Shown: positions 30,063 through 36,669 of the stretch, piece by piece
Layout of the letters: every line of letters begins with the position of its first letter
How positions within the stretch are numbered: the stretch's first letter is position 1
IMG/VR virus record: IMGVR_UViG_3300046469_000011
Span: 27,878-91,877 of that record
DNA: 64,000 nucleotides
Reading direction: 5' to 3' (one strand)
DNA from: a virus
Taxonomy: Duplodnaviria > Caudoviricetes
The notes under the pieces: model-generated
Told to the model about the DNA's origin: nothing
Databases searched by the model: none
What the model saw: only the letters and a program-made list of their open reading frames with translations
Translations under genes and position numbers: made by a program

Positions 30063-31046
30063 CTGCCGCAAGGATGCCGCTTCAGCTACGCATCTGTGGA
30101 TGGTGTACGGGTGCATTTGCGCGGGATCGCCATCGTGATCGGGCGCGATGAAGATGGTCATGTACGGCGAGAGAGCTTCGGCTACGGCCTCGGTGGCATC
30201 ACGGCCTGCCTGATCAGAATCGAAGAACAGTGTGACCCGCTCGGCACGTTCCTTGATCAGCCGCATCTGTCTATCACCGAAGTATGAACCATTGATAGCT
30301 ACTGTATTTATATAGCCGTGATAGTGCATAGCTATCGCATTGTATTCACCTTCGACAATGATCAGATGATCTCGATCAGCCGGAACTCGATAGAGAGCGA
30401 AGACGATCTCATTTTTCAGATATGGCTCAATGTTCTCATCGCGCAAGTTCAAATACTTTGGCTTGCGATTATTCATGGCACGAGCTTTGATGCCTACGAG
30501 ATTGCCATTCTCGTCACGGATGGGAAGCGTGATGCGGTTGTGCTTGGAACTGAAACCGAATTCCCATTCTTCGAGGACTCCCACAGAAAATCCGCGCTCC
30601 CACATATATTTCGCCCACGGTGTATGAGCGTGAGCTTTCCAATCAACGCGGTAACGATCAAGCACGCTTTCATCAAGAATCACGTTCTCACGCTTGATCA
30701 CGGGCTTTTTTTCGAGAATCAATCTGATCTCTTCGACCATGCTGCGCGAATCAGGGTCGATCCCGGCTGGGGAATACCGCTGCTTGAGCATCCGCGTTGA
30801 TTCGAGCGGGCTGACGCCGAGAATCTGAGCAGCCAGCGAAACAGCATTCCCCTTGGCGTGGCAGGAATGACAGAAGAACGCCGTCGTCTCGTCGTTCATG
30901 TAGGCGCTTGGATTTTCATCCGCCTTCACATGGGCTGGGAGCGGGCAGGAGAATTGCCACTCCTTCTCGGTGGCGCGGCGGACGTTACGAATATCCAGAC
31001 AGTCGAGGTAATCCTCGACCTCTATGCAAGCTGGATCAAAGGGCAT
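30042..31046 (-). CDS. DNA primase (CHC2 zinc finger + TOPRIM)
   Basis: CPLPAH...PS...FFCHSC; IVEGEYN; FFDSDQAG. Confidence 0.9.
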   Translation of the reverse strand: MPFDPACIEVEDYLDCLDIRNVRRATEKEWQFSCPLPAHVKADENPSAYMNDETTAFFCHSCHAKGNAVSLAAQILGVSPLESTRMLKQRYSPAGIDPDSRSMVEEIRLILEKKPVIKRENVILDESVLDRYRVDWKAHAHTPWAKYMWERGFSVGVLEEWEFGFSSKHNRITLPIRDENGNLVGIKARAMNNRKPKYLNLRDENIEPYLKNEIVFALYRVPADRDHLIIVEGEYNAIAMHYHGYINTVAINGSYFGDRQMRLIKERAERVTLFFDSDQAGRDATEAVAEALSPYMTIFIAPDHDGDPAQMHPYTIHRCVAEAASLRQLRLARS

Positions 31047-31851
31047 TCTGTCTTGCCTTCAATATAAATGGATTGCTGCCCATCTTCCATTCATTTATTC
31101 TATTCAGCGCCAACTCACAGTAAGAAAGTTCCTTCTCGATCCCCACACACCTTCTGCCTAATTCCAAACTCGCAATAGCAGTAGATCCAGATCCCAAAAA
31201 AGGGTCCAAAACCAAATCACCCGGCGCTGTATGAGGAAGAATAATACGAGACAAAGCGCCCAAAGGCTTCTGTGCGGGATGTAACACCACCCGTTTCCCG
31301 CGACCACCAGATTTACGTGCTTCCTCAATAGTCGGTTCTTCAATGTCGGACCAAACGTTTGTGGCCCGCTTGTAGGGATTATCTTCCTTGCCTAACCTCT
31401 TGATCCAAGATTCGTGATATTTCTCCGTGCTGTATTGGTGTTCCTTATTCCAGCGATACTGATCAGATTTAGTAGCCCATACGCATTCCTCACGAGTAAA
31501 TAGCCACCCACGGCGGTTCCCACGCCCGCGCTGCTTGTTCCACACAATCATGTCTCGAAAAACAGCTTGCTTTCTCAAAACAGCAACGATGTCAATCAAA
31601 GATGACGATTTCTCCCCTACCGAACACCACACATAAATCGAAGCATCGGTCTTCAAAACTCTCAATACCTCGATAATCCATTCTTCTGTCCATTTAGCAT
31701 AATCGCTAACTTTATCCCACTGAGCAGACAAAACACCCCCGTAAGGCGGATCGCAAATCGCTAAATCAAAAATTGAATCCGGAAACTTCTTTAGCTCGGT
31801 AATGCAATCCCCGCAGATCACACTATATGATCCATAATCAAGATCAAGCAT
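31036..31851 (-). CDS. DNA N6-adenine/N4-cytosine methyltransferase (beta class)
   Basis: DLAICDPPY precedes HPAQKP and VLDPFLGSGST; start at ATG 31851 overlapping the dnaB end. Confidence 0.9.
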   Translation of the reverse strand: MLDLDYGSYSVICGDCITELKKFPDSIFDLAICDPPYGGVLSAQWDKVSDYAKWTEEWIIEVLRVLKTDASIYVWCSVGEKSSSLIDIVAVLRKQAVFRDMIVWNKQRGRGNRRGWLFTREECVWATKSDQYRWNKEHQYSTEKYHESWIKRLGKEDNPYKRATNVWSDIEEPTIEEARKSGGRGKRVVLHPAQKPLGALSRIILPHTAPGDLVLDPFLGSGSTAIASLELGRRCVGIEKELSYCELALNRINEWKMGSNPFILKARQNAL

Positions 31852-33166
31852 GGGCACGGGCAAATCCTGATACGCGGTTTTCCATCCACTTGTCAAAGCC
31901 CGTGCCGGTTGGCTTTGGCTCCGGATCACGATCCTCACGCCGCATACGGTCCTGAATCGTCTGCTCGCGGAAATCCTGTAGCTCGTGGTCCCAGCGAGCC
32001 TTGAAAGACTTGCGCGGTCCTTGGCGATTCTTCGAGAGCCGAATCTCCATTTCCTTGCGCTCTTCCATTTCTTCATCCTGGAAAAGCCCGATGACGATAT
32101 CTGAGTCCTGAGATATGGAGATTGCATCAGCGACGTTAGCTAGCTCAGCACCGCCTTTAGCCCCCTCGCGATTGGTCTGGGCAGCCATGATGATCGGCGT
32201 TCTGAGCCGACGCGCATAGATCTTGAGATCTTGGGTGATCTCAGAAAGCTGCTGATAGCGCTTCACACCACGAGAAATATTTGATGAGCGCATCAGGCCG
32301 ACGTAATCAACGATCACCACATCAGGCTTGTGACGCAAGGTTTCCGCGTACACGTTGTCTGGCGTGATGCGATACATCGAATCGATGATCGAAATGTCGT
32401 TCTTGGTGTTCTTCACCCGCTCGGCGACCTTGCGCCATTCTTTTATGTCATGCGGATCAAGAGAAAGCTGACGCATCTTTGCGTAGTCAATCCGTGATCC
32501 CATCACATCGAAGACGCGAAGAATGTCTTCCGCTTCCATTTCCAAAGAGAAATACAGCGGGTGGTAGCCCTTGAGATAGAAGTTGAAGGCCAGCACGCGC
32601 AGCAGCGTTGATTTTCCAACGTTCGTGAAGCCCAGAACGGAAATTAGCTCGTGGCGCTTGATCCCATCCGTCAGACGGTCCAGCGTGGGAAACCCAAAAG
32701 GAATTCCTGGGTGCCTACCTTCTGCCTGGCGGCGCTCCTGCTCAACGATCCGCTGCTCCATTTCGGAATACCGGGCGACCTTCCCTGACGGAATGACCTG
32801 GATCAGCTTTTGGGCGGCTTCGAGAAGCTCTATGTCGATGTTCTCAGCCCGTTCGCGGTCATCAGCGGCCTGAGCCACTTCCACGAGGATGTCATCAGCC
32901 ATCCGCCGCTTTACTTGGACCGTGAAGCGATCTAGCAGGAAATCCAGAGAATCCTGCATCTGCAACCACTCGAAATCGGGTCGATCAGTCTTAGCTACTT
33001 CAAGGCTGGGGCACGACTTGTATTTGCGAGTGTGGCTGACAAGATAACGGTACATATCCCGGCATTCTTCATCAGCGAAATGATCTTCATTTATGTTGCG
33101 GGAGATTGCTTCTTCGATTTGTCCAGTAAATACGAGCTTTGTTACTAAAGCGCGTTCTATATCCAT
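31844..33166 (-). CDS. dnaB: DnaB-like replicative helicase
   Basis: GFTNVGKS, FSLEM, VDYVGL, AAQTNR, ISQDSD, KNRQG. Confidence 0.92.
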   Translation of the reverse strand: MDIERALVTKLVFTGQIEEAISRNINEDHFADEECRDMYRYLVSHTRKYKSCPSLEVAKTDRPDFEWLQMQDSLDFLLDRFTVQVKRRMADDILVEVAQAADDRERAENIDIELLEAAQKLIQVIPSGKVARYSEMEQRIVEQERRQAEGRHPGIPFGFPTLDRLTDGIKRHELISVLGFTNVGKSTLLRVLAFNFYLKGYHPLYFSLEMEAEDILRVFDVMGSRIDYAKMRQLSLDPHDIKEWRKVAERVKNTKNDISIIDSMYRITPDNVYAETLRHKPDVVIVDYVGLMRSSNISRGVKRYQQLSEITQDLKIYARRLRTPIIMAAQTNREGAKGGAELANVADAISISQDSDIVIGLFQDEEMEERKEMEIRLSKNRQGPRKSFKARWDHELQDFREQTIQDRMRREDRDPEPKPTGTGFDKWMENRVSGFARAHA

Positions 33167-34032: not shown

Positions 34033-34347
34033 TTAGATCTCTTCCAGTCTTGATCGCTTTATGCTGTGTGGTCGGCGCATTTTTTCGATGGCCTTTTCGA
34101 GTTCCTTCTCGGTTGGGTTCCAGTGAACCAGACCCTTGCCTGAGCGTCGATCTGTCTTTCGCATCCACTCCCTGATGCCCTCGATCTGCTCGGGCGTCCA
34201 GTAGCGCCAGTTGGAGCGCCCCCGCTCCGACCGCAGATGCTCAGGCAGCACCTTGTCTTGCTCCCACTTGCGGATCGTCCCAATCCGGCGATTGAGCATC
34301 TGTGCCGCCTCCCGTATGTAGATGCGTCCTGCCTCGACTTCTGGCAT
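34033..34347 (-). CDS. MerR-type HTH DNA-binding protein
   Basis: IREAAQMLNRRIGTIRKWE...R...NWRYWT.EQI; probable leaderless start at ATG 34347. Confidence 0.8.
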   Translation of the reverse strand: MPEVEAGRIYIREAAQMLNRRIGTIRKWEQDKVLPEHLRSERGRSNWRYWTPEQIEGIREWMRKTDRRSGKGLVHWNPTEKELEKAIEKMRRPHSIKRSRLEEI

Positions 34348-34354
34348 GAATGCG

Positions 34355-34383
34355 ATCATAGCACCAAAGATCACAGGTGTCCA
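34355..34383 (-). promoter_or_regulatory. Promoter for a leaderless MerR/replication operon
   Basis: TGGACA-17-(TGc)TATGAT, with ATG 7 nt downstream. Confidence 0.6.
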
Positions 34384-34390
34384 AGAACAA

Positions 34391-34417
34391 GAAAACCCCG
34401 CTATTTGCGGGGCTTTC
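34391..34417. terminator. Hairpin between divergent promoters
   Basis: GAAAACCCCGC-TATTT-GCGGGGCTTTC. Confidence 0.5.
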
Positions 34418-34427
34418 TCTGAACCAC

Positions 34428-34456
34428 TTGACGGCCTGGTGGACGCCGACTAGGGT
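34428..34456 (+). promoter_or_regulatory. Promoter reading into the non-coding region
   Basis: TTGACG-17-TAGGGT. Confidence 0.6.
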
Positions 34457-34462
34457 TCTGAA

Positions 34463-34815
34463 TCACCGAGAGATCCACGCACAGCCTAACACATAGCGGC
34501 TATATGTCTAGTGCGGTACAAAGCCCTGTAGTTAGAACCTAGCTACAGAAGAGAGGCCAAGTGACTGACGGCCCTGGGTGCTACAGCCAAAGCCCTTCTG
34601 CTGGGAGGGAGTCGCCGCTATGAATTCCCAGATCCACATGCCCCGTCGCAGTCGCGCAAGCGAGGGCGGGCGCAGACGAGTGAGAAGCGAAAGCTCTCCG
34701 GACGATAAAGCTGCACCTGGGCGTCCTTTCGTCTGCGCGGTGAATAATCACCTGGGCGACGTTCCCGGAGAACTTCGACCCATCGCTTTCCCGGCAAGGG
34801 GGCGGTGGGTTCAGT
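34463..34815 (+). ncRNA. Candidate structured non-coding RNA
   Basis: Many stems, GNRA tetraloops and G-U pairs consistent with the + strand; promoter directly upstream; no credible ORF. Confidence 0.5.
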
Positions 34816-34835
34816 AGCCCAAAGAGGGGAGAGGG

Positions 34836-35252
34836 TTATGGTTTCAGCGCTTCGCGAATGGCTCGTCGGCAAAGTCCGTCAGCTTCTACGTTTTGCTCTC
34901 GCGGAATCCACTGGATTGAAACCGAGCGAAACCGGCTGGCTTCTTCCCACACCTGATCTCGAAGTTTCTGAAGTTCCCGGTTGCGGCAAGTCCATTCCTC
35001 CCGAAGCTGATGAACAATCAGTTTGGAATCCGAGAAAATTTCGAGATCCGTCGCGCCGATCTCTGCCGCGAGGCGAACTGCCAGCAAAGCGCCGTTGTAT
35101 TCGCCGACATTATTCGTCGTATGAGGCGGAAGTAGCTTTGTTTTCTCGAAGTATTCGTTATTCGAGCGCAAAACACACGCTGCCGCCTGAATGCGGGATG
35201 AATTTCCGCTACCGTCGATATATGCCGTAGCGAATACCCTATTCGCCGACAT
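34836..35252 (-). CDS. rnhA: Ribonuclease HI
   Basis: YIDGS...TNNVGEY...FSDSKL...WIPREQN..AD. Confidence 0.9.
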   Translation of the reverse strand: MSANRVFATAYIDGSGNSSRIQAAACVLRSNNEYFEKTKLLPPHTTNNVGEYNGALLAVRLAAEIGATDLEIFSDSKLIVHQLREEWTCRNRELQKLRDQVWEEASRFRSVSIQWIPREQNVEADGLCRRAIREALKP

Positions 35253-36669
35253 AGTTGAGGATATCTCGGCGATTTACGTCGAATATCTCGTAGCCATGCG
35301 CGGCGTAGACCCTATTTCGGCGCACATGCCATTGGGCGTTCAGAGGTTCGCAGTCGATGTCGTGGAAATCGAACACACGAGCTTCGTCTTTATCGTGGTG
35401 GAACCTCGAAACGCGGCCAACCTGCTGCTCAATTAGACCGGGATTGCGCTGCGGGAAGGCCAAAAACAGTCTGTCGAGGCGGCGAATGTCGAGAGCTTCG
35501 TCAGCCAGAGTCGAAAGAATGCAGCATGGCTCGGAATTCGCGTATTCGACAACCCGATTACGCTCTTCTGACGATTCTTTTCCAGTAATCCTGTGAATCG
35601 GATACTGATATTCGTTTTCTTCAAGCAAAGCCTGAATATTGTCCAAATGTTCAAGGCGCTTTGAGAGTACGAGCGTGTGAGTGCCTTCTTCGATCAAGAT
35701 CGATTTGGCAATGAGCCAGTTACGTTCTTCGTCATTGGTCAAAGCCTGGATCATCTTTCCGTAATTTGATGGCCTTCTGCCGCTAGCAGGCCGAAACGGA
35801 TACCTGAACGTCGTGGGGATGCGGTAGATGATCGGCTTGATGATGTTATGGACCTCTTCACGCCTCGTCTCGTAGACGATGGGTCCGAGAACTGCCTGCG
35901 CCAGAGCGAAATCGCCGGTCTTGTCAGGCGTAGCACTTACTCCTATACGCCATGTGGAACTAAACCTATCTACAAGTCTATTGTATGTAGATGCTGTAGC
36001 ATGATGGCATTCATCTAGACACATAAATCCAAATGAATCGAAGAACCCAAGGTTTTCTAGCTCTTCGTATCTATTGTTCAACGTCTGAACTGTAGCTATA
36101 TTTAGATGTTTAGTAGTGGCGAACTGACCATCGCCAATGATCCCGACAGGGTAGTCAGGACCCAGAAATTGCCTGGCTCTGGCTATCCACTGATAGAGGA
36201 TGTCCTTAGTGTTCACGAGGATGATGGCCCGCTGGTGAATCAGGCGGATCAGTTCCAGGACGGCCACGGTCTTTCCTGATCCCGCAGGAGCCTTGTAGAT
36301 ACCCGCGAGTAGCCCTGGCCTGGCGAAATCCACGAATCGCTGCTGCCAGGGCCGCAAGGAAATTTTCATGCCCTTCTCTTCATAGGGGCGCAGGAAGGTC
36401 GTGTGCATGTCTATGTTGGTCTTGATCCCATATGCCTCCAAGCCCTGCAAAAGCGGGCCGATGAAGCCCCGAGGCATCACCAGAGCCGCTTTTTCAACAT
36501 CCCATAGCTGAATCTTCTCGGGCATGTGTTCCCAGCCAGGGGTGTTCTGCTCCATCGCTTTCTGTCTCTCAAGGTTAGGTAACGAGAGCGCTTCTACGAT
36601 AGAATCGCGGACATCGTGAGGAAGCTCGGATAGGGCAATCCGGAGCTTGTGGTCAATCCTGATCACCAT
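35239..36669 (-). CDS. Superfamily II DNA/RNA helicase
   Basis: LRPWQ, APAGSGKT, DECHH, SAT, QQVGRVSR. Confidence 0.9.
   Translation of the reverse strand: MVIRIDHKLRIALSELPHDVRDSIVEALSLPNLERQKAMEQNTPGWEHMPEKIQLWDVEKAALVMPRGFIGPLLQGLEAYGIKTNIDMHTTFLRPYEEKGMKISLRPWQQRFVDFARPGLLAGIYKAPAGSGKTVAVLELIRLIHQRAIILVNTKDILYQWIARARQFLGPDYPVGIIGDGQFATTKHLNIATVQTLNNRYEELENLGFFDSFGFMCLDECHHATASTYNRLVDRFSSTWRIGVSATPDKTGDFALAQAVLGPIVYETRREEVHNIIKPIIYRIPTTFRYPFRPASGRRPSNYGKMIQALTNDEERNWLIAKSILIEEGTHTLVLSKRLEHLDNIQALLEENEYQYPIHRITGKESSEERNRVVEYANSEPCCILSTLADEALDIRRLDRLFLAFPQRNPGLIEQQVGRVSRFHHDKDEARVFDFHDIDCEPLNAQWHVRRNRVYAAHGYEIFDVNRRDILNYVGE

Follow-up and report, generated by a model that had tools for sequence, protein, structure and literature searches.

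An EGFOA RNA gene in a phage replication module

The 64-kb stretch of phage DNA that was analyzed here (the window) contains a further member of the known EGFOA family of RNAs, in an extended natural form. Very probably its gene stands alone, yields a structured non-coding RNA that unites the EGFOA core, a 5' domain and 3' hairpins in one molecule, and is accessory cargo of the phage. An Infernal/Rfam scan, which the initial annotation had suggested, yielded a single match: EGFOA (RF02955) is the sole Rfam family found in the window (Rfam 15), with a match of 117 nt at 59.7 bits (E = 3.3e-8 for the 64-kb window). The gathering score of the family is 37.7 bits, and the match spans model positions 1-108 of 108. 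The initial annotation had described a structured non-coding RNA of about 350 nt, which is borne out by the EGFOA match and by the conservation of the RNA body in a relative, and it had considered a new class of structured RNA. Because the core is a full-length match above the threshold, the supposed new class is a known family.

The typical elements of the family are all recognizable (Table 1). Its conserved unpaired nucleotides are CCGUC and GUAAAGCUNNACCUGGG, and the conserved elements CCGUC..AG and (G/A)UAAAGCUNNACCUGGG are found in the window as CCGTCGCAG (34643-34651) and ATAAAGCTGCACCTGGG (34705-34721). The outer stem P2 was recovered independently as inverted repeat I7. The two strands of the pseudoknot covary in the family and read CCUAG/CUAGG in loci L117, L118 and L123. 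A family named EGFOA-assoc-1 was absent from every Rfam scan, and RF02956 is a different family.

Table 1. Features of the RNA gene and its surroundings (positions in the window; H and P denote helices)
Feature	Position	Strand	Remarks
DnaB gene	31844-33166	-	beyond the MerR-like gene and two small genes
MerR-like small helix-turn-helix protein gene	34033-34374	-	divergent from the RNA
Gap housing the RNA gene	34375-34835		461 nt; between the MerR-like gene and the RNase H gene
G+C-rich hairpin between two divergent promoters	34396-34412		outside the RNA; likely terminator of the helicase-RNase H transcript (- strand)
Putative sigma-70-type promoter of the RNA, TTGACG-17-TAGGGT	34428-34456	+	read from the sequence
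Conserved 5' leader	34472-34491	+	17/20 identical to L173; conservation of the RNA body begins here
5' domain	34492-34622	+	131 nt; H1 encloses H2, H3 and H4; ends 4 nt before CCCAG
H1, closing helix	34492-34500/34614-34622	+	9 bp
H2	34526-34535/34539-34548	+	10 bp, one G-U
H3, hairpin	34555-34573	+	
H4, hairpin	34593-34609	+	
EGFOA core	34622-34738	+	cmscan, RF02955
Pseudoknot 5' strand CCCAG	34627-34631	+	pairs with CUGGG 34717-34721 in the P4 loop
P1, TCGC-GCAA-GCGA	34652-34663	+	
P2, outer stem GCGCAGACGA/TCGTCTGCGC	34670-34679/34729-34738	+	10 bp
P3, GAAA-capped hairpin	34682-34698	+	
P4, GGACG/CGTCC	34700-34704/34722-34726	+	loop contains conserved UAAAGCUGCACCUGGG
H5, hairpin GGTGA-ATAA-TCACC	34739-34752	+	stem invariant in L173; loop changed, 2 nt longer
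Second copy of the pseudoknot 3' strand, CACCTGGGCGACGTT (CACCUGGGCG)	34749-34763	+	direct repeat of 34714-34728
H6, 3' hairpin	34778-34810	+	13 bp, four G-U pairs
RNase H gene	34836-35252	-	convergent with the RNA; Pfam RVT_3 2.6e-21, RNase_H 1.5e-9; PHROG 531
SF2 helicase gene	35239-36669	-	precedes RNase H

Conservation of the structure in a close relative

Among eleven contigs with homologues of the MerR-like protein that were looked up, seven represent syntenic loci that lack the RNA, and a single one contains it. This contig, L173, is a metagenome contig of 915 nt with a MerR-like protein 85% identical to that of the window, and it is the only close relative found via the MerR-like homologues that retains the gap. 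Protein-guided scans of IMG/VR with the RNase H and the MerR-like protein yielded no close relatives, a blastn search with the gap had no match among phage GenBank records, and a pattern of the window-type core had zero matches in the metagenome and viral collections. A pattern of the 5' domain matched twice in metagenomes; both matches were dismissed as chance, with no EGFOA at either site.

All helices listed in the initial annotation are present and consist of standard pairs. In a curated structure of 73 pairs, compared between the window and L173, 97% of the cells are paired. Four pairs are compensatory, namely 34493/34621 in H1 (A-U to G-C from the window to L173), 34528/34546 in H2 (G-C to C-G), and 34673/34735 and 34677/34731 in P2. 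Four further pairs have changed one-sidedly between G-U and G-C with retention of pairing; one-sided U-G to C-G changes are found at 34532 and 34597 in L173, and a G-C pair of P4 has become G-U. The inner stem of P3 has been rebuilt, the loop of P1 has changed from GCAA to GAAA, and 11 of the 13 pairs of H6 are unchanged. Controls in which the 3' partners were slid by 1-3 columns had 0-1 compensatory pairs and 39-51% pairing. The covariation that had been proposed as a check is visible in four pairs, but the comparison comprises two sequences, and the observed values are matched by 25 of 500 shuffles. Because it involves two sequences only, the base-pair evidence for the flanks of the core is modest.

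Folding of the 5' domain recovers H1 to H4 (z = -2.04). Neither this region (34460-34620) nor the 3' region (34740-34835) has an Rfam match at E <= 10.

Promoter, strand and extent of the transcript

The promoter that had been read from the sequence was located in the gap; it was missed by a consensus scan because its -10 hexamer is weak. In L173, the -35 hexamer is identical in 6/6 positions and the -10 hexamer in 4/6 (TAAGTT), whereas the spacer has 29% identity and the segment 34457-34471 has 3/15 identical positions (20%). The RNA body (34472-34835) is again 81% identical. Conserved hexamers, a diverged spacer and leader, and a conserved body fit a promoter that is followed by an RNA body starting near 34472. 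The RNA is probably driven by this promoter of its own, judging from the sequence, and would be transcribed convergently with the helicase and RNase H genes. The transcript is predicted to comprise about 350-370 nt of the plus strand, with a start at about 34463 and an end at 34815-34832. H6 is possibly the 3' end or the terminator of the RNA; at a Bacillaceae locus (L148), the hairpin in the corresponding position has a terminator-like score. No canonical terminator was found 3' of H6. The 5' domain, the EGFOA core and the 3' hairpins would be parts of one RNA.

The initial annotation had noted that GNRA loops and G-U pairs agree with the plus (promoter) strand. The G-U pairs are found in H2, H4, P4 and especially H6, and would be C-A mismatches on the minus strand; in addition, the EGFOA model matches the plus strand only. 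The folding energy of the plus strand lies beyond that of shuffled controls (z = -2.17), but modestly, as 4 of 100 shuffles fold equally well; the value for the minus strand is z = -1.33. The real support for the RNA is therefore the covariance-model match and the comparison with the relative, not the folding energy.

The gap contains open reading frames of 56-84 codons, and no known RNA core had been recognized in the initial annotation. Both points could be taken to mean that the gap encodes a small protein or an RNA of an entirely new class, and a 3' UTR element of the minus strand is a further variant of this reading. We regard its probability as negligible. The EGFOA match lies above the threshold, and the G-U pairs as well as the model match favor the plus strand. 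The pairwise comparison of the window and L173 revealed no coding signature in any frame, in agreement with the earlier statement that the region lacks a credible ORF. There is no synonymous excess, non-synonymous differences dominate every frame, and indels of 1 nt and 2 nt break the reading frames.

The flanks of EGFOA cores in other lineages

Pattern scans yielded 52 EGFOA loci, 14 of them in IMG/VR and 38 in genomes of bacteria and archaea; 32 of the 52 were rescanned with Rfam, and all 32 score above the cut-off. A first, loose viral pattern was abandoned, as it found mostly chance matches; 8 of its 116 loci looked real, including that of the window. Conservation of the flanks reaches about 110 nt upstream of the core and 110-125 nt downstream of it; this holds for Bacillaceae, for Paenibacillaceae/Clostridia and for Thermoleophilia, and loci of other phages likewise have conserved flanks of about 110 nt per side. 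The conserved flanks indicate that the natural EGFOA RNA has a length of about 330-370 nt, roughly three times that of the Rfam model.

The downstream flank is characterized by an ACCUCA motif, a hairpin with a 3' arm that starts with GGGGG, and a GUUKUCCUC motif. Across 23 other EGFOA loci, 7 of the 8 pairs of this hairpin covary, and H6 corresponds to it in form and position. A model of the 3' flank (R1) of low information has its best match in the window at 34765-34822 on the plus strand, with 11.5 bits and E = 0.49; because this score is non-significant, it is the placement on H6 that carries weight. The upstream flanks have less in common. Common to them are only a short GUUAGAGGG-like motif (AGGGAG in the case of the window and the relatives nearest to it) and a closing helix ending 4-5 nt 5' of CCCAG. 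An alignment of 5' flanks across lineages yielded no consensus structure. The 5' domain of the window cannot be aligned to the 5' flanks of other EGFOA loci and may therefore be lineage-specific; we assume homology no further than the AGGGAG/GUUAGAGGG-like motif and the closing helix next to CCCAG. A simple scan revealed no promoter upstream of two EGFOA members from Firmicutes.

Of five host genomes that were checked, four contain a single EGFOA copy; the fifth has two, both truncated at contig ends and without a score. This check of five genomes therefore gives no sign of a multi-copy element. Two contigs of Alkaliphilus transvaalensis (L139 and L146, 1050 and 1059 nt) both end inside an EGFOA copy, which could reflect an assembly break in a repetitive element; these truncated copies received no score in the genome-wide model search. 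A sequence at L014:9062-9176, identical in L039 and L108, contains CCCAG, CCGTC and TAAAGCTACACCTGGG, but these are separated by a long insertion. It lies below the Rfam gathering score and could be an enlarged, divergent form of EGFOA.

Genomic setting and accessory nature of the RNA gene

The window is part of a virus record of 91,877 bp from IMG/VR with a CheckV completeness of 90%. Almost all of its genes are on the minus strand, and the RNA is encoded on the strand opposite to both of its neighbors. No integrase or resolvase is encoded in the record. The MerR-like protein has weak Pfam matches below the cut-off (MerR_1/MerR) and 36 homologues, which are found in phage replication modules. 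A promoter-like sequence, TGGACA-17-TATGAT with a TG extension, lies on the minus strand at 34355-34383, directly after the terminator hairpin, and overlaps the annotated start of the MerR-like gene (34337-34374). L173 lacks the GTG at 34374; the gene therefore probably starts at an ATG further downstream, and the message may possibly be leaderless. At the other end of this group of genes, the longest open frames of a DNA methylase (31036-32127, minus strand) and of DnaB overlap by about 280 nt, and the start of the methylase is probably a later codon.

The seven syntenic loci without EGFOA (L163, L165, L166, L167, L169, L171 and L172) all encode the MerR-like protein and DnaB, most of them a primase, and four the helicase and RNase H. 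The gap before their MerR-like gene has a length of 14-516 nt in six loci and of 1230 nt in the seventh, and none has similarity to the gap of the window. The presence of syntenic replication modules without the RNA argues that the RNA gene was inserted as accessory cargo and is no constant component of the module; it would thus stand outside the replication machinery. Two of the loci have long gene-free DNA upstream of the MerR-like gene (L165:2985-3500, 516 nt, and L167:2271-3500, 1230 nt), with no Rfam match and no similarity to the window; on the gene strand, the gap of L165 folds better than shuffled controls (z = -2.56). It may be that various non-coding inserts are taken up at this site upstream of the MerR-like gene. 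In two others a tRNA gene is found shortly upstream of the MerR-like gene, at the place of EGFOA in the window (L169:2957-3030 and L171:288-359); L169 has in addition a weak tRNA-Sec-like match at 534-615, below the cut-off.

In other genomes the gene contexts of EGFOA are varied. A group of phages of about 65 kb contains it in a gene-poor gap of about 2 kb between an amidase (lysis) gene and the gene for the alpha subunit of DNA polymerase III, co-directional with its neighbors (L121:6310-8265 and equivalents in L067, L122, L052 and L119); the gap of the window is shorter. At another locus EGFOA lies upstream of a terminase gene. In bacterial genomes (L125-L162), large serine recombinase genes adjoin 12 loci, in divergent orientation at a distance of about 470-560 nt; tyrosine integrases, an excisionase-like HTH_17 protein and an IS110 transposase are further neighbors, and tRNA or tmRNA genes occur within a few hundred nucleotides. 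This suggests that EGFOA rides on integrative elements near their ends. At the Thermoleophilia loci, which are nearest to the core of the window, the neighboring proteins had no informative Pfam match.

These contexts bear on the second proposal of the initial annotation, an RNA-primed replication origin of the ColE1 or T4 type, in which the transcript would form an R-loop, from which RNase H would produce the primer used by the neighboring replication proteins. The element is indeed located inside a replication module, beside RNase H and near the SF2 helicase and DnaB, it is G+C-rich (52-65%), and the large gap that EGFOA occupies in the 65-kb phages immediately precedes the DNA polymerase III alpha gene. 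However, syntenic phages have the same replication genes without the element, some of them nearly gapless, and the RNase H family of the phage is widespread in relatives that lack the RNA. Elsewhere EGFOA is found in surroundings unrelated to replication: it precedes a terminase gene, and in bacterial genomes its neighbors include serine or tyrosine recombinases and tRNA genes. The gap of the window lacks iterons as well as an AT-rich unwinding tract (the G+C content amounts to 52-65% over 34400-34900), and apart from the duplicated pseudoknot strand it contains no direct repeat. A primer, moreover, would not need a pseudoknotted fold that is conserved across phyla. The absence from syntenic loci, the varied contexts and the lack of iterons and an AT-rich tract make an origin very unlikely, and the proposal is not upheld; the same evidence favors a stand-alone RNA that would act in trans and travel with mobile elements.

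The convergent arrangement with RNase H raises another alternative, namely, that the RNA regulates the helicase-RNase H message in cis, by collision or by pairing with its 3' end. The G+C-rich hairpin, which is 100% conserved in L173 (17/17 identical), is terminator-like on the plus strand, and TTTTCTTGTTCTT follows it on the minus strand. As this likely terminator of the message lies beyond the whole RNA gene, the 3' UTR of the message would be fully complementary to the RNA. We nevertheless regard such a role as quite unlikely. In the 65-kb phages and at most bacterial loci EGFOA is co-directional with one or both neighbors, so antisense pairing cannot be the general role of the family, and it would not require a conserved tertiary fold with a pseudoknot.

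Possible mode of action

The preferred reading is therefore that of a stand-alone RNA carried as cargo. Such an RNA would act in trans as a folded, possibly self-assembling particle, e.g., as a scaffold or a decoy. The varied gene contexts of EGFOA suggest this mode of action, and we give it about even chances. The pseudoknotted core with its highly conserved unpaired nucleotides and the association with phages and integrative elements could also point to a ligand-sensing or catalytic RNA, i.e., a riboswitch-like sponge or a self-cleaving ribozyme on mobile elements. That is improbable in our view, to about the same degree as the antisense role: EGFOA is not consistently located upstream of any gene, and the cryo-EM study of the family reports oligomers, neither a ligand nor cleavage (bioRxiv 10.64898/2026.07.01.735769).

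The EGFOA member of the window may likewise form oligomers. Its pseudoknot 3' strand is duplicated; the two copies (direct repeat D2, 34714-34728 and 34749-34763) are 87% identical, each carries CACCUGGG, and both are conserved in L173. One may speculate that the second copy could be an alternative or intermolecular partner for CCCAG, which would recall the strand-exchanged dimer seen by cryo-EM. A more far-reaching version would be that full-length EGFOA RNAs of about 350 nt are self-assembling, accessory mobile cargo, in which the duplicated strand enables intra- or intermolecular pairing with CCCAG and thereby the formation of decoy or scaffold oligomers. We regard this version as unlikely; if it were true, oligomers formed during infection could sequester a host factor or a defense signal. 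In any case, the duplicated strand provides a concrete idea of how oligomers may form.

Comparison with known systems

The primer RNA II of ColE1 and the R-loop origins of T4 are examples of RNA-primed replication. They resemble the RNA of the window in that a promoter-driven, structured transcript lies beside an RNase H gene within replication functions. They differ in that the element of the window is absent from syntenic phages and has no AT-rich or iteron features, no antisense partner of the RNA I type was seen, and the EGFOA family also occurs in contexts unrelated to replication. The syntenic comparison thus marks the RNA gene as dispensable cargo and not as part of the replication apparatus.

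GOLLD, ROOL and OLE are RNAs that are often borne by phages or prophages. They are large and ornate and form homo-oligomers (Nature 2025, PMC12286853). Like the RNA of the window they are orphan structured RNAs of several hundred nucleotides, and members of both groups self-assemble in vitro. The RNA of the window is smaller and has another fold, and none of the three families reaches its gathering threshold anywhere in the window or has a match with E <= 10 between 33900 and 35400. The similarity concerns the kind of RNA and not the family.

The closest system is the EGFOA family itself. According to a 2026 preprint (bioRxiv 10.64898/2026.07.01.735769), EGFOA RNAs are putative small RNAs whose gene-free surroundings are unusually large; for the motif the preprint refers to its reference 41, which we take to be Weinberg et al. 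2017 (PMC5737381), in the main text of which EGFOA is not named. Two members form homo-oligomers in vitro, and a trimer, a hexamer and a strand-exchanged dimer were seen by cryo-EM, the solved RNAs being described as smaller than 200 nt (same preprint). The RNA of the window has in common with the family the full-length model match, the same CCCAG/CUGGG pseudoknot, CCGUC and UAAAGCUNNACCUGGG, P1 to P4, and the location in a gene-free gap of a phage. The copy of the window differs in several respects: the Rfam model covers 117 of about 350-370 nt, the 131-nt 5' domain with its three hairpins cannot be aligned, a second copy of the pseudoknot strand is present, and the gap is a short one of 461 nt in a replication module, with the RNA on the strand opposite to both neighbors. 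EGFOA is an orphan RNA with a solved quaternary structure, and its recombinase, excisionase-like and tRNA/tmRNA neighbors suggest that it travels with integrative elements. With its apparent promoter of its own, the copy of the window is a candidate for the full-length transcript, about three times as long as the Rfam model of 108 positions.
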